DNA of 64,000 bases from Mytilus edulis (lineage: Eukaryota), in contig NC_092354.1 of assembly GCF_963676685.1 (NCBI RefSeq), positions 35,774,001-35,838,000 of the forward strand, written 5' to 3'. Position numbers and translations under genes: made by a program. Shown piece by piece: positions 19,567 through 53,749 of this stretch; position 1 is the stretch's first letter; each line of letters begins with the position of its first letter. The notes under the pieces are model-generated. The model searched no databases, had not been told where the DNA came from, and saw only the letters and a program-made list of their open reading frames with translations.

Positions 19567-19981
19567 GTAAGTTTATCCATATGTTTTTAAACAAAAATGC
19601 ACAGTATATATATTCCGTCGCTGGAAATTATTCATAAGTATGACAGTAACCAATTAAATGCCAAGGTCCCCGCTATGGACTTTTGAAGGTGAGTCCAGGG
19701 ACTTGTCATTTTTGGCCATGGTGAGTACAACAGCAAAAAGAATATTTTTATTGCAATATAATGTAATATTTTATCCTCCATGGCCTAACAGAGCAATGAA
19801 ATGACATTAAATCAGATTAATTTTTAAACTTTTGCTATAAATATATATTTTAATTTAACTGTGTTCAGTTTATACAAAATTTTACAATCTTGATGCATCT
19901 GTGGACTCACCAGTTTTGAAAATAGTGAGCCCAGACATATTTTGATGAGTCCAGGCCTTAGCGAGAACCCTGAAATGCCAC

Positions 19982-20169
19982 CGCCAGTTAAGATGAAACT
20001 ACACCAGGGCATTAAGTCATTACTTAACTGCAATTGAATGTTACTTGTTTAATACAGCTTTAGACTAACACATGTATACAATGATGTTTAGTTTACAATG
20101 GAGAGCGAAGAGAGAGAGAGCGAGCTAAAACATAGTTAACAGTTCCGGACAATAGAGCCTATTATGGCG
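19982..20169 (-). repeat. 3' LTR (188 bp)
   Basis: CGCCA...TGGCG ends; identical to 25479-25664 except for one extra AG unit. Confidence 0.95.
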
Positions 20170-20176
20170 TTACCAG

Positions 20177-20194
20177 TTTTTCTTTTCTTTCCTC
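20177..20194 (-). other. Polypurine tract
   Basis: Minus strand GAGGAAAGAAAAGAAAAA, separated from the LTR by CTGGTAA. Confidence 0.75.
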
Positions 20195-20442
20195 ATATAT
20201 TAAATTAAAGTTACTTTTAAATATAAGACTTTGCATAATTGTTACAAGAACAAACATATTAATTGTTGAAAAAAACACACTTTCATAGGGTAGACTGCCA
20301 TCAAGTGTTATCGTGGATTATTCTGCCCCACTTATACATAATAATAATCAAACAAATAATAGTTCAAATTTGCTATTCCAACGCAAATTGGTTTTGTGCT
20401 TATGGTCCACACTAGTTATATTAGTACACAATGATTTGTCTC

Positions 20443-23400
20443 TCACTGAGATAGAAAATAATTGTCTTGAAGAAATTTAGGAGGATGGCATTTCCGTGTG
20501 GATCGTCGAATTACATCGGTGTTTACTTGATCATCAGGGTCGTGTTGTAATTCATTTTCGCCTATTGGTAAGCTTAAGTCACTTGGTTCGTTTTCGAAAA
20601 GTTCCGGTTCTAACTCCTGTGAATGAGGAATGGATATTACATTCGGAATGTCAGTAGGTTTAGGCGGGCTTTGTGTTTTTACTGTATTATCGTCCTCGTC
20701 TGAAGATGTAGAATTGTCGTGACTATAAGTATCCTGTTGGCGTAAAGTGTTTAATAGTGACGGGACTTTATAACAATCACTCCTTTTTACACGGTATGAT
20801 GTATTGCGTAACTGAGAACCAACAAATTTTCTTATGTTGCACCAAGAATTGTCTGTAGAAACAACTAGGTATCGGTCACGAGCACAAGTTTTGTTTCGGT
20901 CGTTATATAAGTAAACTAGATCACCAACTTCTAAATGCGGAGTTTCGGGTAGGGCTCCAGAGGGAGCTTTAGGAATTTCGCTGTAACTGTGGTTCGACTT
21001 TCGTAACTCATGTTGACGCTGAATAAGATTCTGATCTGTCAAAGGTATTTGGTTGTTTGAGAATTGATCACGTTGAGTCCACATTTCTCTTGCGGATAAC
21101 CCACGGTTACGAATGCGAGAATTTAAACGGGCAATAGCCAGAGTGAGTGACAGGGGTGATATACATCGTGTATTCGGGTCTTGTCGCAAAATTTCGTCTT
21201 CTAACTCTTGAATTGCCTTGTCGGCTACAGGGTTTTTGTTTTTGTTTTTGAAACGACCAACTTCTATGGTAATTCTATGTCGGCGCAAAAGTTCATCGTT
21301 GACCAGGGCTTGGAATCCTGGTGCAGGGTCGGTACGAACAACGGCAAATGGTCCATCGAGTGGACATAGTTCAACACAAAGACACAATAAAGACTCACGT
21401 AAAGTTTCTTGGCGCTCGTCTGTGATCAAGCGAGCGGCTGTGTATGACGTAACATATTCACGCACAACTAGGATAAGCTGTCGTTCACGCTTCATCACAT
21501 CTGCAGCAAATGCAGACCCTATTGTCTCTGGTGGGTCACCTGTAGATTGTACATTTAACTTGTGAGGAATTTTTTGAAGAGCGGCACATTGATGACATCC
21601 ATTACTGACAGTTTCAATTGCTTTATCCATATCAAGTGCGAAGAAGTAACGGTGTACGACAGATTTAAGTTGATAGGTTGAAGGATGGTCGAGTTTAATG
21701 TGTAACGATGTAAGTAGTCCGTCTAAAACCTGACGAGGAACAACAATACATTCACGTGTTGGAGCCATCGGCTCGTTTCTCTTGACAACGAGTAAACCGT
21801 CTTTAGCAATACACGCATTGTTTAGATAGCGTTTTATGTCCTTTACATTAGTAAGTTTTTTTGACGGTCGGGTCCCTTGGCGCAAGTGAGCATGTGTACG
21901 CCGTAAGTCCGAGCATTCTGTTTGGATTGATATCCAGGCGTTCCTGCTTGTAAACGGAAGTTTTTGAATCCCTTCAAGAATGTCTTTTGTTGAGATATGT
22001 CTAACAACTGAATTTTCAGTAAATTGCACAAATGTACAGATTTGACAGGCTGAATCCTCACAGTCTGGTGCATTGCGACTTGCAAAATCGGACGGAAGTA
22101 TAGCAGCTCCTGCTACATGTCTTACTGTTACTTGATATCTACAGGCTGTTGAAAGAAATGTCGAAACACGTGGGCTTGCTGAAAATTCTCCCCTACACAG
22201 CTTCTCGAATGCCTGAACACAGGGTTTACTATCGGTCAATATGCACGTGTTATGTTTTGATTGTATGATATACGGACTAAAGTGCTTAATAGCTGAGGCA
22301 ATAGACAGTGCTTCGATTTCACAAGGCAGCCACGTTAATTGGCGTTTTCGCAGTTTTGCACTAAAAAATCCGGAAACATGTATTTTATCATCACGTGTTA
22401 TGTAAAGGGTAGCGCCTAAGCCATGTTTTTTCACAGAACCATCGGTAACTATCCATAGTTGATCATTTGGTTGAGGTAAAAATATTGAACGATTTGTTGA
22501 AAGAGCTTTCTGTGCCTGCGAGAATATATCAGTAAGTTCGTCCGACCATTTTATAGTTTCTTTAGATTCTCGACCGGCTACCATATCATCAAGTTTACCT
22601 AGTAATGAAGCGCAATCTGGTATTACTCGTGCGAGTACTTTATACGCTCCAATAAAAGACCGTAAACCACATACTTTGTCTGGTTGTGGACAAACTGATA
22701 ATGTAGAAATACGATGCGGGTTGGCTTTGATAGTTCCTAATTGCCAAATCCATCCAAGAATAGTTGTAGTTTTGGGTGCGATAATCGTTTTAGAAGCAGA
22801 CAAATTTAGACTGTTCTTTTGCAGAGCCTGTAGAACCCTTGTCCAGTTTTGTAGTAATTCGAGTTGGGTATTTCCACCGCAATAAAGATCATCAGCTATT
22901 TTAGCTACAACACCTTCTTCTACCAGATCACCTAAAACACGACACATTAGCTCCTCAAGTGCTGTTTCTGAGCCTGGCATGCCCATTGCAGAGCGCACAT
23001 ACACACGCACACCTTTAAAGGGGGTTACTACACCACAGTATTTCATTGAATCACTCGAAAGTGGAATTTGGTAGAACGATTTAGTAAGGTATGTTGCTAT
23101 TATGTATTTCCACTGTGCTATTTGACGTAAGGTTGAATCAACATCTGGCATGAGTGACGGTTGGGGTTTGCTATATCGGCCTACGTCTGCAAATGCGGTA
23201 ACTAAACGGAAACTGCCATTTGGTTTCTTAACTAAAAATGACGGGTTAACATATTCTACAGATACGCCAATATCTTCTGGGCGTTTGAAAACACCAATTG
23301 CTTCAAGTTCATCAAATTTTTGTTGAAGTTCTACTAGTTGATTACGGGAATATTGCGGCACACGGCCTTTGCGTTGCGGTGGTTGGACTGGTCCCATGTT

Positions 23401-24171
23401 CACTCTAGCTTGAAATGGACCGGCGGCACCATTGTATCCCTTGAAATATGGGTCGAAAACATCATCAAAGTCTTTGACCGTATCCCTGAATTTTACTTTT
23501 AACTCTTGAGATAACAAATTATCTGGGTCAATTTTTACTGATTCTGAATGATTTGTCAATCTTGGGTGATTTATTTTATCAATGTTCTCAGTTGATTCGA
23601 CGGCATCACTTATACACTCTGGAACATATGTTGATCGTATTTGACAAAAGTGTTCGTTGCGTCTTAAACTATGGGGTTCCTGTGTCAAATTTGGAATACG
23701 AATTCTGCCGGCAACGCTTGTAATCAAATTTGGCGGGGGCCACACGTTTGAATCCTTTCCAGCATGCATTGATGAAACATGCGACTCTAATCTTGGTTCA
23801 ATGGCGAATGTATCATCAGTTGAGCAAATATCAGATGGTAATTGCATTTCAAGAAAATCACCAGGCCAAATAGTTGTAAATTGAGCCGGAGCACGTAAAA
23901 CGTGTGCCCGACGGACTGTATGATGTTCGGACGTGTTTTGAACGGAGCCATAAGTATAAACGGTATTGTTACCCAGTATTACTTGACGTTTAGCGGGACG
24001 GATAGAAATGTCATTTTTTTCCATAAAAGGAATACCAGCCAAGATGTCTACATCCAAAGTTTCGACGACTAAACCCTCAAAATGTAGTTCACGTCCATCA
24101 CGTGTGAAATTAGTGTGCACTTCCCCAATGACTTTGAGGGGTGAAGATCCATCGGCCTGATGTGCAGATTG
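20443..24171 (-). CDS. pol: Pol: protease C-terminal part, reverse transcriptase, RNase H, integrase
   Basis: ILAG protease motif; RT MGMPGS and IADDL; RNase H TDGS, EIEAL and TDSKP; integrase H-x4-H...CHQC, FAAD and RTD. Same frame as gag, separated by a single TAA. Confidence 0.9.
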
Positions 24172-25314
24172 TTAGCTAGACTTTATTTCAATACCCATTC
24201 GTTTAGCTGCGGAAGCACGTAACATATTGCCGGTCGCACCACTATCAATAGTTAAACGCGTGTTATAATGTGTATGGAACACGTCAAGATACGGATACTG
24301 GCGGACTTGGACTCGGTTTACTGAATGCATAGGTTTAGAAACATTGTCGACTTCTACGTCTGACAATTCGTCATCTGAATTATCTAATATTCCGGCAATT
24401 TGTCGGGCTTTAACCATGTATTTTCGGTCGCTGTTCGGTAAGAAAGAGCACTTGCTGAGGAAGTGGCGGTCGGGTCTGCCTGTTGCTTTACACAACGGAC
24501 AACTTTTAATAGAGCGTGGATAAGATAATTTGAGTTTTTCTTCATGAACAAACTTGGATTTTGCAGGAAAGTTAGAAGTAGCTGCTCGCATAACTTTTGC
24601 ATCCTCAGAATTACGGAGTTCCTCAAGTAATGAGTCAAGCGCTTGCGAAACTTCCGGTTTTATTGACGACAATGTTCGCGATCTCAATTCTGTTCCATAT
24701 CTTTGTTTGACCAATTTCGGTAGGTCTGTATGTATTAGTCTTAACCATGTTAGAACGACAAAGTTTTCAAGTGACGGTGTCATTTCTTCATCTTCCTCGA
24801 TTGCGCCCCCGTGATGCGTTATTTGGGTATCGCGACGGAGCAGGTTGTCTTCCACAAAAGCCATTATTCGTTGATAAAGGTCTTCTGGACGTTCGTTCGG
24901 TTCAAAATGTATTGCTGCAAAGTCTATAAAATGAGCACCCGTTGATTGGAATCCATAATGTAAACGGATGGTTTGCCATATATTTTCAATAGAAGTAGAA
25001 TTTTTTACTATTGTGTTTCTAGATATAACTGGGCAATAATTGGCTATTTGACCAAGCATTAATTCTAACATGCTGACTTTTTGTTCACGTGTACGCCTAT
25101 TTGCTTCGGCTACATCTTCACCATCATTCAAAAAGCCACGGTTGGGACCAAACCTAGTTTTCTTTTGCCATTGTACGTTGTCTCCTAAGAATGGTGCAAA
25201 ATGTGGGTCTAATGATAACGTGTATATTATGTTTTGTCTCCAGTTTTCAAATGAGTTTACAGTTTCAATTTTAGTAAGACACCACTGTTTAGGTGCTCTG
25301 TGAGTATTAGCCAT
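24172..25314 (-). CDS. gag: Gag plus protease N-terminal part (DSG active site)
   Basis: 380 aa; CPLC...H...C knuckle and TIDSGATG. Ends at an in-frame TAA inside the protease. Confidence 0.9.
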
Positions 25315-25467
25315 TGTGTTAAATGCTTTTGCTTATTTATAATGCAGTTTAAGTTTCACGGTAAATATTTATTTACGGATGACCTAGACAGGTTTTAGTC
25401 AGTCCCGATGTTCGTCTCAACAATATGATGAATAATAAACCTTTCTTGTAGGCGTAAATTCGAATCA

Positions 25468-25478
25468 CGCTGCCACCA
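25468..25478 (-). other. Primer-binding site complementary to the tRNA-Leu 3' end
   Basis: Minus strand TGGTGGCAGCG abuts the 5' LTR. Gapped similarity extends to TTCGAATC (tRNA T-loop). Confidence 0.8.
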
Positions 25479-25664
25479 CGCCAGTTAAGATGAAACTACA
25501 CCAGGGCATTAAGTCATTACTTAACTGCAATTGAATGTTACTTGTTTAATACAGCTTTAGACTAACACATGTATACAATGATGTTTAGTTTACAATGGAG
25601 AGCGAAGAGAGAGAGCGAGCTAAAACATAGTTAACAGTTCCGGACAATAGAGCCTATTATGGCG
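25479..25664 (-). repeat. 5' LTR (186 bp)
   Basis: Direct repeat of 19982-20169. Confidence 0.95.
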
Positions 25665-26264
25665 CACTTTTAATGGCTGTATTGTCAGGTTAAAAAGGAA
25701 TTCATGGATAAATAACCGCTGCATTGGTGTTACATAATTGTGCAGACATATAATTAAAACAATGACAAAGAAATGACTTGTTTAATGAATAGGGTTAATA
25801 AACTGATGCACATCAACTGTTGAGTTGTTGAATGTTAAATCCGTGTCTTGTGTCCGGAATTTCTGGTTTATATGTATCGATCATACACAATCTGGTATAT
25901 TTCATGTGAAGTTGAGTCACAGGCATGTGTTCAGTTTTCCCTGACAGTTTTTTAAAGCTGCACTGGCATAATTACATACAAATAAAACATAACAGATAGC
26001 AAATATTGACAGTTCCTGTACATCAGAGTTAGTTTTTGGATATAAAGATAACACGATTATGTAACTACTTAATATTGACTACTTATGCATGTGGAAATTT
26101 TTGGGTTTTATCAGTCAACGTCAAATTTACAATTGAATATCCCACAGTCACACGTAAAAATACATCAAATATTTAATAGTATTCAGTCATAGAATCCGAG
26201 CAAGAAAAAGAACATGAAATTTTTAAGTTGAAACCTTCATCCGGTACTATCTAAACAAAAATTA

Positions 26265-26710
26265 AAAAAACAAGTGAAACTGCGAGCTACTGCTCACTGA
26301 TGATACCCCCGCCGCAAGTGGATAATATAAAAAGTGTAAAAATATGTAAGTGTTCTGTAAACAGGAAGTTGTTGAGTGATGAATCTGAAAACGCATCACA
26401 CGGTATAGCTGATAATATAAATCCTGAAACCAAATTTCAGAAATCCTTGTATTGTATTTCCTGAGAAAAATGTGACGAAAATTTTCAACTTGGCTATCAT
26501 GTGTAAAATCATACAAGTGTTTGGTAAACAGGAAGTTGTCAAGTGATCAATCTGAAAACGCATCACACAGTATAGCTGACTTAGATAAACCCTGAAACCA
26601 AATTTCAGAAATCCTTGTATTGTAGTTCCTGAGAAAAATATTCATGGGACGAACGGACTGACGGAGGTAAAACAGTATACCCCCCTTTTTTTTAAACGGG
26701 GGTATAAAAA
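26265..26710 (-). mobile_element. Non-autonomous Helentron, third family
   Basis: GTATACCCCC...CGGGGGTATAAAAA terminal hairpin, GACG microsatellite, two internal tandem units and a GATACCCCCG subTIR. Confidence 0.65.
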
Positions 26711-47808: not shown

Positions 47809-50800
47809 TTATATTTTATAATAAATTCCAATTTCTTTTAAAAAAGCAACAATATTTGTAAATGAAACATTATTAAATAAATCATACATATTATTGACAT
47901 TGAAATGCTTCTTACGAATATCAGCAAAGTCAATACAATTAATTAAAACATGTTTAATAGTATACTTGCAGTTGCAAGGAACACATTGTGGTTCATCTTC
48001 ATTTTTTAAAAGATACTCGTGTGTTATTTTAGTATGACCAATACGACATCTAGTAATAACACACTGATCTTTTCTGCACATAATATTATCAAAAGGTTTG
48101 CCTAAATTAGGTTTAATTTCATGCAATTTATTATCGTCTTTTTTACTCCATTTATTTTTCAATATATTAAAAACATATTCTCTAATATTAGATTTAAAAT
48201 CAGTATATGGTATATCACAGTTAGATAGAGGGTCACCCAGGGCATTCTTTGCCTCAAGGTCTACAGCTGTGTTTCCAAGGATTCCAACATGACTCGGAAC
48301 CCATAGAAATATTATTTCTTTCAGAAGAATTTTTAAATTCCTCATTACATATAAAATTTTCAGGATTGTTGGGTTTTTAATTTTAGTATTTCGTATAGCT
48401 TGTAAGCATGAAAGTGAATCCGAACATATAATAAATTTGGATTTATCTGAAGAAGCAATAAATTTCAAAGCCAAAATTATTGCTTCTGCTTCAGCAGTAA
48501 AGATGGATGCATCAGATGGCAAACGGAGGGTTGCAGCTCTGTCCCTGAAGACAGCAGCAGATGCAACTCTATCACCATCTTTTGATCCATCAGTATAGAC
48601 AGTTGAAAAATCGAGATAATCGGCTTTAATTTCAGCATAGTGTTGCTGAATTAAAAGAGGATTTGTTTTATTTTTATTGTGTTCACGGAGATCAAATATC
48701 ATTTTTGGTTTGGGAAGTTCCCATGGAGGACATTTGCAAGTTTGAACTTGAGCAACAGATTTTAAATCAAAAGAAGCTAAATGTGGTTTTAAACGTAAAC
48801 CTAACGGAGGAATTTTATGTTCATGTTTTGCAAAAATATCTTCATAAATCGGATTAAAAACACAGCTGTAGGCAGGATTATCTGAATGGGCTTTTAGTTT
48901 GACAGCATATTGAAGTCCAAGCTTCAAACGTCTGTCAGTGAGTGAGTGCTCATCAGCCTCTACATACAGACTCTCAACTGGTGAGGTTTTAAATGCGCCA
49001 AGACAGAGACGCAAACCTTGGTGATGCACAGCATCGAGAATCTGTATGTAGGACTTCCTTGCAGAGCCATACACTATAGAGCCATAATCTAGTTTAGATC
49101 TAACAAGAGATCTATATAAATTGAGTAAAATGTTGCGATCAGCACCCCAGTCAGTGCTGCCGACAACTTTTAAAATATCTAAAGCTTTTAAACATCTCGC
49201 TTTTAACATTTTGATATGGGGTAGAAAGGTTAACTTTTTATCGAAAATTAACCCAAGAAATTTGGTTTCATCAACCATTTTAATTGGGTTGCCGTACAAA
49301 GTTAGTTCTGGATCAAGATGCAATTTTCTTTTGTTACAAAAATGCATCCCGACCGTTTTTGAAGTGGAAAATTTAAAACCATTTTCCGAGGCCCATTTTT
49401 CAATTCTTCCAAGACATAATTGTAATTGTCTTTCAATGTTATTCATATTTTTGCCTCTGTAACATATTAAAAAATCATCAACGTACAATGAACCTTCAAT
49501 ATTACTTTTTAAAACTTCAACAAGGCTGTTGATTTTAAGACTAAATAATGTAACAGATAAAATACTGCCCTGAGGGACACCCATCTCTTGATCATAAAGA
49601 TCAGACATGGTCGAATTAACTCTAACATTAAATTGTCTGTTAGAGAGAAAATTAGAAATAAAATTAGGCATATTGCCTTTCAACCCCATATCAAATAGAT
49701 CTTTTAAAATACCATATTTCCATGCAGTATCATAGGCCTTCTCAAGGTCGAAAAAGACCGACACCACATGCTCATTTTTCGCAAAACCATTACGGACAAA
49801 TGATTCGAATCGAACAAGATGATCAAGAGTACTGCGACCCTGTCGGAATCCACACTGAATATTGGCTAATAGCCCATTGGATTCCAGGAACCAAACAAGG
49901 CGATCATTGACCATCCGTTCGAGTGTTTTACAGACACAACTGGTAAGAGCAATTGGTCGATAATTAATAGGATCCGTATGATCTTTACTTGGTTTTGGAA
50001 TAGGCACGACGGTTGCAAGCTTCCAGATTGATGGTAAATCACCAGATTCCCAGATGTTATTCATGAGCTGCAAGAGAGCTTCTAGCGAGGAATCTGGCAA
50101 GTGTTTTAAGAGTTGGTAGTGAATATTATCAGGCCCACAAGCTGTATCATGGGCTTTTGACAGAGATGTTTTAAGTTCTTCAAGAGAAAATAGTTTATTA
50201 TAATTTTCACCATTTTTTGATTTAAAGTTTAATTTAATTTTTTCCTTTTGTTTTTTAACTTTTTTAAAGTCTTCCCTGTAGTTGTTACAAGAAGAAGACT
50301 TTGCAAAAGTTTCACCAAGTTTGTTGGCAATATCCTTTTCAGATGTTAATAAATTATTGCCGTCTTTCAAATGTTTTACAGTGGCTTTAGAATTTTTACC
50401 TTTTATTTTATTTACCATATTCCAAACTTTTGTCATCGGAGTGCGAGATGTAATCCCCGAGACAAATTTTTTCCAGGATGTTCGTCGGGCTTGCCTACAA
50501 GTCCGCCGTGCCTTAGCGCGAAAAATACGGAAATTACTCAAGTTTTCCGTCGTTGGTTGTTGATTGAACCGTCTTTCAGATTTTTTACGGTCACCTATGG
50601 CTTGATCACATGCGTCATCAAACCATGGTTTACTGGGATGTTTTGGATTTGCCGAGGTCTTAGGAATAGTTCTGTCAGCAATTGACGTTAGAACTGTATT
50701 AAAAGTTAAAATTGGATCTTGCACAGTCTCAAACATCTTTGACTGAAGTTCCGTTCGACAGAGATTCTCAAACAAGGACCAGTCCGCCTTGTCAAGTTTC

Positions 50801-51480
50801 CAACGTGGTACTCTCTGTTGGGCAGAATTAAAAAAATGTTCAAGTACTATTGGAAAGTGATCACTTCCACATAGATCATCATGAACACGCCATGAATAAT
50901 CCAGGAGCAGAGAGGGATCGCATATAGTGATATCAATAGAAGAATAAGACCCGTTTCCAGGATGAAGATACGTATTAGATCCATCATTAAAAATGCATAA
51001 TCCTTCTTGAGAGACAAAGTCCTCAATGATCTTACCTTTGGCATTATGAGTCTTGCTACCCCATAATTGATTGTGGGCATTGAAGTCGCCCATAAGTATA
51101 AATGGTGAGGGTAATTGATCAGTGAGGTTTTTGAGTTTTGCTTTATCGATAATTGAATTAGGTGGAATATATATCGAACATAATGTAATTGTTTTGTCTA
51201 ATGATAAACGAATTGCAACTGCTTGCAGATCCGTTGTGAGTTGGACTGTGCTATGAATGACGTTGTCCTTCACAAAAATGGATGATCCGCCTGCAGCACG
51301 TTCATCTACCTTAGAAAATGTGCTATACATGTTGTATCCTTTTAAAGATACGTTGTCACTTTCTTTTAGATGAGTTTCTTGAAGACAAAATGCAATAAGT
51401 AAAAAAGACTGAACTAGAAGTGTTAACTCGAGAAGATTTATTTTAAGACCTCGGCAATTCCATTGGATTATATTTGTCAT
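47809..51480 (-). CDS. LINE ORF2: AP endonuclease, reverse transcriptase, RNase H and CCHC finger (1223 aa, intact)
   Basis: QWNCRG, LQET, GDFNAH, SDHFP; YRPIAL, DLEKAYD, GVPQG, YVDD; YTDGS, AEAEAI, SDSLS, GNTAVD; CVPC...H....C. Confidence 0.97.
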   Translation of the reverse strand: MTNIIQWNCRGLKINLLELTLLVQSFLLIAFCLQETHLKESDNVSLKGYNMYSTFSKVDERAAGGSSIFVKDNVIHSTVQLTTDLQAVAIRLSLDKTITLCSIYIPPNSIIDKAKLKNLTDQLPSPFILMGDFNAHNQLWGSKTHNAKGKIIEDFVSQEGLCIFNDGSNTYLHPGNGSYSSIDITICDPSLLLDYSWRVHDDLCGSDHFPIVLEHFFNSAQQRVPRWKLDKADWSLFENLCRTELQSKMFETVQDPILTFNTVLTSIADRTIPKTSANPKHPSKPWFDDACDQAIGDRKKSERRFNQQPTTENLSNFRIFRAKARRTCRQARRTSWKKFVSGITSRTPMTKVWNMVNKIKGKNSKATVKHLKDGNNLLTSEKDIANKLGETFAKSSSCNNYREDFKKVKKQKEKIKLNFKSKNGENYNKLFSLEELKTSLSKAHDTACGPDNIHYQLLKHLPDSSLEALLQLMNNIWESGDLPSIWKLATVVPIPKPSKDHTDPINYRPIALTSCVCKTLERMVNDRLVWFLESNGLLANIQCGFRQGRSTLDHLVRFESFVRNGFAKNEHVVSVFFDLEKAYDTAWKYGILKDLFDMGLKGNMPNFISNFLSNRQFNVRVNSTMSDLYDQEMGVPQGSILSVTLFSLKINSLVEVLKSNIEGSLYVDDFLICYRGKNMNNIERQLQLCLGRIEKWASENGFKFSTSKTVGMHFCNKRKLHLDPELTLYGNPIKMVDETKFLGLIFDKKLTFLPHIKMLKARCLKALDILKVVGSTDWGADRNILLNLYRSLVRSKLDYGSIVYGSARKSYIQILDAVHHQGLRLCLGAFKTSPVESLYVEADEHSLTDRRLKLGLQYAVKLKAHSDNPAYSCVFNPIYEDIFAKHEHKIPPLGLRLKPHLASFDLKSVAQVQTCKCPPWELPKPKMIFDLREHNKNKTNPLLIQQHYAEIKADYLDFSTVYTDGSKDGDRVASAAVFRDRAATLRLPSDASIFTAEAEAIILALKFIASSDKSKFIICSDSLSCLQAIRNTKIKNPTILKILYVMRNLKILLKEIIFLWVPSHVGILGNTAVDLEAKNALGDPLSNCDIPYTDFKSNIREYVFNILKNKWSKKDDNKLHEIKPNLGKPFDNIMCRKDQCVITRCRIGHTKITHEYLLKNEDEPQCVPCNCKYTIKHVLINCIDFADIRKKHFNVNNMYDLFNNVSFTNIVAFLKEIGIYYKI

Positions 51481-53001
51481 TATTTAATAAAAGAAGGGCG
51501 AATGCTGTCGAGTTTGCCAGCATTCTTATTTCGCTCACCCTGAGATCGTGATCTTTCGGGTGGCGGAACACTTTCGGTTTCCATTTCAGTTTCGATGATA
51601 AGTGTTGAAAATCTGTTGTGCGAGGAGAGTCGTCGATCTCCAGGACTACGCGCAGCTGGTGTTACTCCGCCTCGACCCCTACCCCGCGACCTCGAATCAG
51701 AAGACTTCTGAGAGGATGAATTTCCTGGCTTCTTTTGGACATCCTTCTTTTCTTGAGAACGAAGAGGAGATGGGGCTCTGGTAGACTGTTTACTGGACGA
51801 AGAAGATACCTTCTTGGATGCAGATGAAGGAAGACTTTTGGAGGTGGAAGAATCATCTATATCACTGGGAAGATCCCAGACAGATTCACCGCTCCAATTG
51901 TGTATTTCTACTGTTTCTTTTTTATTTGATTTTTTTTTCTCATTTTTTTTTTGGTGATGATAGTGAGCTCTGTAGGGAAGATTGAGTTGACTGAGTACTG
52001 GTTTTGGAAGATATTGGTTTTCTTGGAATTAATATTCTATCGGTAGGTTCTGTTTCAACAGGCAGCATTTTAAAATTGTCCGCATCAATTGGCCAAGTCA
52101 TGCGAGTTTGTGTATTCTCGTGACTGAATGAGCGGACAACTTTGCTGGCGTACGATGGTCTGTTTGAAACAAGGAGATCATTCGAAACAGAAGCTATCTG
52201 TTTAGCTTCTGGGTAACTAATGTTTCTTTCTGTTTTAATTTTAATAATATTTTTTTCTTTAAGGTAAACAGGGCAGTCCCTAGACGATGAAAAATGGGAT
52301 TCACCACAGTTTACACATTTAGAAGATTCAGAGTGACAGTTTGTTCCCTCGTGTCCTTCGTCAGAACACTTGAAGCATCTCTGCTTACCACGACATTGTT
52401 TGCTTCCATGACCAACCTTTTGACAAGTAAAGCATCGAATTGGGTTAGGGATAAACATGTCAACTCTGATTCCGAAGCAACCTAAAGTAATAGATGGAGG
52501 AGGAGTTGGAGTTCTAAAGGTCAAAAGATAAGTATTTAATTTGATTATATTTCCATTCTTTTTAATTTGAAATCTAATAACATTAGTTACACCTTGGCTT
52601 GAAAGTTCCTCACCGATTTCTTCCACGGTAAGGTCACCAAGGTATTGACTTCTGTCTCGAATGATCCCCTTACAGCTGTTCAAACTGTTATGAGGAGAGG
52701 CAGAAACAGGAAAGTTTGATATTGTAGACATTGTAAGTAAATTTGTTGATTGACTTTTGTTGGAACATTCAACCAACAAATTGCCAGATCTCATTTTTAA
52801 AACTTTTTTAACAGTACCAGCAACGCTTTGAATTTGTTTGTGAATTACAAAGGGCGATATTTTTGAAATTGGTTTTTCTTCTGTTCCTTTTATTACAATA
52901 AATCTGGGCCAACTGTCATCTTCCCGACAGGGCTCTGAATCATCACATTTTCTTTTCTTATGTATTAAAGCTGATATCGAGGGTTTGTTTTGTTGTGCCA
53001 T
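51480..53001 (-). CDS. LINE ORF1: gag-like protein with three CCHC knuckles; one extra A in an A10 run (51943-51952)
   Basis: Likely start ATG at 53001 (MAQQN). Knuckles CFTCQKVGHGSKQC, CFKCSDEGHEGTNC and CVNCGESH. Removing one A extends the frame through NRFSTL to TAA at 51482-51480. Confidence 0.88.
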
Positions 53002-53749
53002 ATGAAAGGAGAAAGATTCACCATTCTTGCCATCCACCCACCTCGGAGTGCCTACAAGGGCGATGCTGTGTTTCCGTGGCGAACCGGGATCGAGTGCTAA
53101 TGCTGAAAACGAGCTCCATATATAATGTAGCTGGTCCTCAAAATCAGCACCCAAGATCCACTGCGGAAAGCACCAGATGTTCCAAGAATAGTATACTCAA
53201 GCAGAGCGTATCCATCAAGCGAAAAAGAAAGCGTACCACTTGATTGACCCATGAGCCATCGCCTTCTTCAGTTATCCAAAATATAAATAGCTTAATTTAA
53301 AATACATGTGTATATTATGAAAATTGTTACAAGAAAGCTTATTGTTGAGGATTAACTGAAGGGCTCGACATGACCAGCCGATTGATCGAACCGGGTCCAT
53401 CCGACCTCCCGTTTAGATGATTTCGAAGCCAAAGCAGCTTATTGAACTATAGTCTCGTCCGTCCGGGTATTTTCTGACCGTAAGGAGTCTGGCTATAGCC
53501 CTCATCCACAAGGATCTCGTCAACCACCGACACGGGTAGCAACCCACGGCAAACGGGTTGGAGAGCCTATTTTATTTAAAACATCGGGCATCTCACGATG
53601 TTCGGATCACTTTAGTCTGGTCTCTACCCTTCGACCTGTCCAGCATGGGTAACCCTACCAGGAGACGAAGCTCCAGCTGGCATAGCTCTTGGGGTCACTG
53701 AGACACGCAAGCCCTCCGACCACGGCAAGGATAGCGATCCACCGGAGGG
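53002..53749 (-). promoter_or_regulatory. About 750-nt GC-rich, structured LINE 5' UTR
   Basis: Lies between the TSD and the ORF1 ATG and contains multiple complementary segments (see findings). Confidence 0.7.

Follow-up and report, generated by a model that had tools for sequence, protein, structure and literature searches.

Troyka elements have been described as long terminal repeat (LTR) retrotransposons with CGCCA..TGGCG ends, duplications of 3 bp at the target site (TSDs), LTRs of 100-400 bp, one gag-pol frame without env, a CX2CX8-10HX4C knuckle and no GPF/Y motif (Kojima 2025, PMC12440569). According to the same account, they occur in 70 of 86 bivalve genomes, their empty sites are confirmed, Mytilus included, and they stand outside Gypsy as a proposed superfamily of their own. 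The same group was described under another name, Kuafuorterviruses, with an IADD/LADD/VADD motif in the reverse transcriptase (RT) and a size of 5-6 kb (Gong and Han 2024, PMC11673190). The main text of the former makes no mention of a primer, a primer-binding site (PBS), a polypurine tract (PPT) or a tRNA and gives no target preference, and its supplements may differ; the main text of the latter does not discuss termini, PBS or PPT. Here, we analyzed a window of Mytilus edulis DNA, by which we mean the whole stretch of 64,000 nucleotides (contig NC_092354.1, positions 35,774,001 to 35,838,000), which carries an LTR retrotransposon of 5,683 bp on its minus strand at 19982-25664. The original prediction for this locus, made from the letters alone, had proposed an element of Troyka type and had counted Troyka as a Gypsy-like group.

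We conclude, with a probability of roughly three in four, that the element is a recent, broken Troyka copy that likely uses tRNA-Leu, bound at two places, as its primer and likely makes a cDNA with three additional bases at its U3 end, which integrase would trim away. The parts on which this conclusion draws are the following, in window coordinates.

19979-19981, no strand: left copy of the TSD, 3 bp, CAC on the plus strand (GTG in element sense), a single copy in the empty allele.
19982-20169, minus strand: 3' LTR, 188 nt, CGCCA..TGGCG, read from the sequence.
20170-20176, minus strand: 7-nt gap from the pure purine run to the LTR; by junction alignment, its last five nucleotides fit the family-wide RR-YHR pattern (YHR at 20170-20172).
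20177-20194, minus strand: PPT, pure purine portion, read from the sequence.
20443-24171, minus strand: pol part of gag-pol by homologue comparison, with protease end, RT (IADD at 22888-22899), RNase H and integrase.
21217-21249, minus strand: lineage-specific integrase active-site loop K-N-x-N-K-N-P-V-A, by homologue comparison.
24172-25314, minus strand: gag and protease start, in frame with pol, by homologue comparison; CX2CX8HX4C knuckle at 24448-24501.
24172-24174, minus strand: premature in-frame stop within the protease.
25450-25466, minus strand: second tRNA-pairing box, with a predicted 17-bp helix (including G:U) to tRNA-Leu at its T and variable arms.
25468-25478, minus strand: PBS, 11 nt, complementary to the mature tRNA-Leu 3' end by tRNA match, flush with the LTR.
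25479-25664, minus strand: 5' LTR, 186 nt, CGCCA..TGGCG, read from the sequence.
25665-25667, no strand: right copy of the TSD, 3 bp, CAC, from flank sequence and empty allele.

The window element is a member of Troyka/Kuafuortervirus, and its CG ends and 3-bp TSD are traits already published for the group. As originally predicted, both LTRs run from CGCCA to TGGCG, termini that are the same on either strand. Together with the 3-bp TSD and empty site described below, the element shares with Troyka, which is common in bivalves including Mytilus, an LTR length within 100-400 bp and the order Gag-protease-RT-RNase H-integrase in a single frame without env, here broken by one stop (PMC12440569). 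Its Gag knuckle falls within the Troyka pattern, and GPF/Y is absent from the C-terminal part of its integrase and present in 1 of 67 homologues scored. The RT motif is IADD, and I/L/VADD occurs in 112 of 120 homologues. Likeness to the Kuafuorterviruses covers this motif, the size and the published Oxygymnocypris RT row, with which about four fifths of the residues agree by eye, and S1 rows of that study have the same flush PBS and PPT spacing (PMC11673190). Neither the TG..CA termini and 4-6 bp TSDs of Metaviridae/Gypsy nor their YxDD-type RT is found in the element, and its RT shares 24-25% identity with five gypsy-type RTs from its own genome. An RT tree separates 14 Troyka-type RTs (that of the window and 13 relatives) from five YxDD/FxDD gypsy-type RTs of this genome with 100/100 support on long branches; it was built without a named Troyka, Mag or Steamer reference, and the absence of a published Troyka sequence from it speaks against our assignment. 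The Troyka features claimed at the outset are thus present, while the description of Troyka as Gypsy-like has been overtaken by its placement outside Gypsy (PMC12440569).

The only difference between the two LTRs is an indel of 2 nt within a GA microsatellite, and the insertion is therefore recent. The copy is young but broken, which is where it departs from Troyka as described: besides the in-frame stop in the protease, one catalytic position of RT and one of integrase are atypical, with residues absent from nearly all scored homologues. In its other aspects, the element is ordinary for Troyka. LTR and RT searches of the source genome yielded three Troyka-type families, namely A (the window element, to which other copies are 92-99% identical), B (L025) and C (L026), whose RTs are 70-77% identical to each other. 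The RT of family B is nearly identical to P0028, a sequence labelled Mytilus galloprovincialis. No relative was found in a viral contig collection. Troyka gag was also encountered in three records labelled as bacterial metagenome-assembled genomes (L244-L246), likely as contamination with host DNA.

The PBS directly follows the 5' LTR, without a spacer as had been predicted, and can base-pair with the 3' end of tRNA-Leu(AAG/UAG); CCA is missing from the tRNA-Leu genes examined. A PBS was detected in 69 of 83 foreign loci. Across 73 leaders, four of them from the source genome, it begins directly after TGGCG in 62 and after a variant end in 11, and the perfect match is 10-13 nt long in 38 of 44 distinct leaders. 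The anatomy is thus solid for tRNA-Leu as the primer and for a PBS flush with the LTR across hosts, and annealing of the tRNA CCA end to the 11-nt PBS would be the first step of the replication scheme that we propose.

A direct trace of the primer is preserved in one locus of the source genome, L138 (G000:C4:860221-861219), a 1-kb derivative of family C in which the 5' LTR is followed by a tRNA stretch and then by the 3' end of the element. Behind the LTR, 38 of 39 nt match the reverse complement of mature tRNA-Leu(UAG), with the mismatch at tRNA position 58, and the switch to the 3' region of the element lies at a microhomology of up to 7 nt. While 33 of the 39 nt are certainly tRNA, the last 7 could be derived from the element, which tells against a firm naming of the isoacceptor; UAG is therefore favored, not proven. 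The inserted copy has normal CG ends and is flanked by a CAG duplication. In retroviruses, plus-strand synthesis usually stops at m1A58 (PMC13191261), and the mismatch at position 58 therefore marks L138 as a likely read-through product, which likely arose by mis-directed plus-strand transfer. In our scheme, plus-strand synthesis could accordingly pass from the LTR end directly into the tRNA, as this one genomic copy shows. A further observation concerns 13 of 30 LTR-PBS junctions of family C, which read TGGCGG and not TGGTGG (for example L026 and L027; the 13 include L129, which probably lies outside Troyka). The resulting mismatch sits opposite the tRNA discriminator base and is passed on by young copies, which suggests that the PBS may not be routinely recopied from the tRNA; a lack of such recopying has been reported for Ty1 and Ty3 (PMC5371799). 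The same tRNA-Leu is used by a conventional gypsy-type element with TG..CA ends (L058, G000:C2:80.71 Mb), which has a full 18-nt PBS, a 1-nt spacer and a 5-bp TSD and offers a control from within the genome.

Most leaders keep a second stretch, 13-35 nt behind the LTR, that is complementary to the T and variable arms of the tRNA. Among the 44 distinct leaders, which were clustered at ~65% identity and in which L129 was counted as a miss, 27 pair better than their dinucleotide shuffles at p<=0.05 (mean z -2.2). The D-arm control was null (mean z +0.2), and the 45 nt next to the LTR showed no pairing with the D arm. Pairing is also weaker in both downstream windows than in the second box (Wilcoxon p ~1e-7). 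These statistics give fair support to pairing of the box with the T and variable arms, and its putative function, the second step of the scheme, would be that of the additional boxes in the bipartite PBS of Ty1. Both Ty1 and Ty3 have bipartite PBSs (PMC4974528, PMC5371799), and the likeness to Ty1 consists in a short acceptor-stem PBS plus boxes that pair with the tRNA T arm. Unlike Troyka, Ty1 is a copia element primed by tRNA-iMet, with TG..CA ends and pairing to the D arm as well; its cDNA needs no 3' processing (PMC8487063). While the bipartite principle is known, its presence in Troyka appears to be unreported in the main texts of both papers; the Kojima supplements and Repbase Reports 2008 may mention a PBS.

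Several observations weigh against a role of the second box in priming. Pairing is not significant in 17 of the 44 leaders, and the leaders share ancestry and are hence not independent. Moreover, wobble-compatible change is not enriched in the box (C>T 88/304 versus G>A 16/76, p=0.20), and A>G is rarer there than T>C. Instead of anchoring initiation, the box might be an acceptor for over-extended plus-strand DNA, similar to the primer over-extension sequence known in lentiviruses (PMC13191261), or a decaying relic of tRNA read-through. Such a role or origin would fit the unenriched wobble-compatible change and the frequent A at the box position opposite A58 (12 of 38), and L138 shows that read-through past position 58 occurs. 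Against it stand the retention of the box among families that share just 67-76% identity in Gag, whereas most leaders have lost nt 12-18, and the inherited family-C mismatch, which many copies carry and which implies that routine recopying of the PBS region from the tRNA does not take place. We consider this alternative possible, at odds well below even. A different candidate, an internal hairpin of the box with the LTR-PBS junction, was compared with tRNA pairing in those 17 of the 44 leaders that have a clear core; it is not favored, as it accounts for 10 of 51 pairable bases versus 41 of 51 for the tRNA model, and the two could coexist. Taken together, tRNA-Leu anchored at two places is the likely primer of reverse transcription.

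At the other end of the element, we compared 19 distinct PPT-LTR junctions (16 foreign, 3 own) that had been filtered on positions -18 to -7 only. All 19 have purines at -5 and -4, a pyrimidine at -3, never G at -2 and a purine at -1 (RR-YHR), a pattern that fits 4 of 49 host flanks. The purine run is unbroken to -4 in 9 of the 19, and YHR reads CCA in 3, mirroring the tRNA end at the U5 side. Of 38 foreign loci that include an integrase end, 18 yielded no PPT junction; on inspection of 15 loci, 13 of them from this set of 18, most were seen to stop early or to be damaged. The purine tract of the window element does stop 7 nt short of the 3' LTR, as had been noted; among relatives this offset varies between 3 and 7 nt, with 7 nt particular to the window family, and the alignment suggests that it is better read as a 3-nt YHR spacer resembling CCA, after RR. 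As the fourth step, RNase H would cut the PPT after the RR that ends at -4 and leave a three-base U3 tip starting with YHR that would then be trimmed; removal of di- or trinucleotides is known from retroviral integrases (PMC3395085). The U5 end may gain a matching three bases from the tRNA CCA, although three extra bases at both cDNA ends strike us as rather improbable. What counts against the proposed cut is that a pyrimidine already occurs at -6 in 10 of 19 junctions, so that pyrimidines alone do not mark it. Moreover, neither a cDNA end nor an LTR-LTR circle junction was observed: no LTR-LTR junctions were found for families A and C in the source genome, and none that convinced in the loci fetched, a result uninformative at the given copy number.

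Two other arrangements of the cDNA ends have to be weighed. The ends could be flush if YHR were part of the PPT primer, if RNase H cut exactly at the LTR as well as at the tRNA junction, and if integrase carried out no 3' processing. The zero spacer at the PBS and the interruption of the tract at -6 would suit this arrangement, for which Ty1 is a precedent, since its cDNA ends need no processing (PMC8487063) and its PBS is also bipartite (PMC4974528). We regard it as a serious rival, though less likely than not; it does not account for the 9 junctions in which a pure purine run ends at -4 and is followed by a pyrimidine, nor for the three families that read CCA, the mirror of the U5 side. Alternatively, the ends could be unequal (U3 with three extra bases, U5 with none or one) or carry one base each, namely the invariant purine at -1 and a residual A of the tRNA. 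One residual ribo-A is the usual retroviral case, and the purine at -1 in 19 of 19 junctions as well as a mild asymmetry of the TSDs (p=0.03) are in line with it. Since the asymmetry is weak (n=31), and the invariant pyrimidine at -3 and the three CCA junctions would be left unexplained, we regard this possibility as unlikely, and slightly more so than flush ends.

A three-base U3 tip calls for an integrase that removes it. The structure model of the window integrase (pLDDT 82, pTM 0.52) best matches PFV (Z 18.0, rmsd 5.4, 318 aligned residues), followed by Ty3 (Z 17.1, rmsd 7.0, 322 aligned) and other retroviral integrases; a sequence search of the PDB with the window integrase gave no match. 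The model thus suggests a fold in common with PFV (4bac/3l2q) and Ty3 (7q5b) over ~320 residues, at 12-15% identity and with CG instead of CA ends and a 3-bp stagger in Troyka. Ahead of the last catalytic residue, the loop has the sequence K-N-x-N-K-N-P-V-A in the 74 of 120 homologues captured by a pattern that itself fixed N and P, versus P-x-x-x-G-x-x at the same position in four gypsy-type controls. The corresponding loop of PFV, residues 212-214, is in contact with the DNA end (PMC3395085), and it is plausible that the lineage-specific loop would read the CG ends. The fifth step would then be exposure of CG-3'OH by a retrovirus-type DDE integrase with this loop. The most complete version of the scheme, in which the tips match because U5 is copied from the tRNA CCA and U3 encodes a CCA mimic (YHR), and in which integrase with its unique loop trims both, reads CG and cuts with a three-base stagger, is offered tentatively, as we believe it less likely than not. 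Of the atypical integrase geometry proposed initially, the 3-bp stagger and the CG ends hold, whereas the 7-nt offset is family-specific and flush ends have a precedent in Ty1 (PMC8487063).

The stagger itself was tabulated for 32 insertions with both ends pairable, excluding one-ended copies, one site duplicate and one solo LTR with a deleted start. Across the three families of the source genome, 31 of these have a 3-bp TSD and none has one of 4, 5 or 6 bp; the sole exception is an insertion with a decayed end. Three gypsy-type controls of the same genome have TG..CA termini and 4-5 bp TSDs. The window element is flanked by CAC on both sides, and in three of four public DNA runs contigs connect 19978 directly with 25665, so that 5686 bases are passed over, and three letters at the joint fit both sides, which is the empty allele with one CAC that the prediction demanded. 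Contigs of the fourth run, X11, contained no such joint and are uninformative either way. The insertion is therefore not fixed among the sampled individuals. Relative to flank composition, the target triplet is enriched for C at the first base (13/31, p=3e-4), A/T in the middle (30/31, p=2e-4) and G at the last base (17/31, p=4e-7), showing a palindromic bias for C-W-G. The sixth step of the scheme, a target cut with a 3-nt stagger and a preference for C-W-G, is shown by these counts. The 31 sites are mildly asymmetric, with a purine beside the 5' LTR in 27 and a pyrimidine at the mirror position in 17 (p=0.03).

The left flank, TGCCAC, had been pointed out as resembling the end of the PBS. 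The 6-nt likeness is real and due to chance: it is seen in 1 of 32 insertions, other flanks match over at most 4 nt, and the flank is host DNA already present in the empty allele. Targeting of PBS-like sequence and shifted boundaries with 4-6 bp TSDs were accordingly both rejected. That the 3-bp TSD and CG ends are a boundary artefact, or that the element targets PBS-like or tRNA-like sequence, is refuted by the TSD counts, the empty allele, the single flank with such a likeness and the gypsy controls, and we give it next to no credence. One family-A copy (L024, G000:C8:89.84 Mb) lies inside a 38-bp tandem array.

Around the window element, a medium-copy host repeat (~19620-19972) ends 6 nt left of the TSD, and a very-high-copy repeat (~26270-26700, contig depth 2-5 x 10^5) lies on the right. 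The window also contains a LINE at 47809-53196 on the minus strand with a 1224-aa endonuclease-RT frame, which has a weak RNase H-like match at its end, and with two frames further upstream, 418 and 182 aa long, that have no Pfam match.

What makes these findings valuable is the cis-element anatomy they give of a superfamily that was proposed in 2024-25 and on which the main texts of the two describing papers contain no functional work (PMC12440569, PMC11673190). Absent from both main texts are the tRNA-Leu PBS, the tRNA capture in L138, the second box, the RR-YHR junction, the C-W-G bias and the integrase loop. The primer tRNA is now named, and L138 preserves, as a natural fossil, a read-through into the tRNA together with a misread of the m1A58 type. 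The question of the CG ends and 3-bp TSD is reduced to the number of extra bases on the cDNA ends (0, 1 or 3) and to one integrase loop. In addition, the PBS and PPT motifs could let annotation tools detect elements that finders based on TG..CA would miss. If true, matching tips and a bipartite tRNA-Leu PBS would be the replication design of the whole proposed superfamily.

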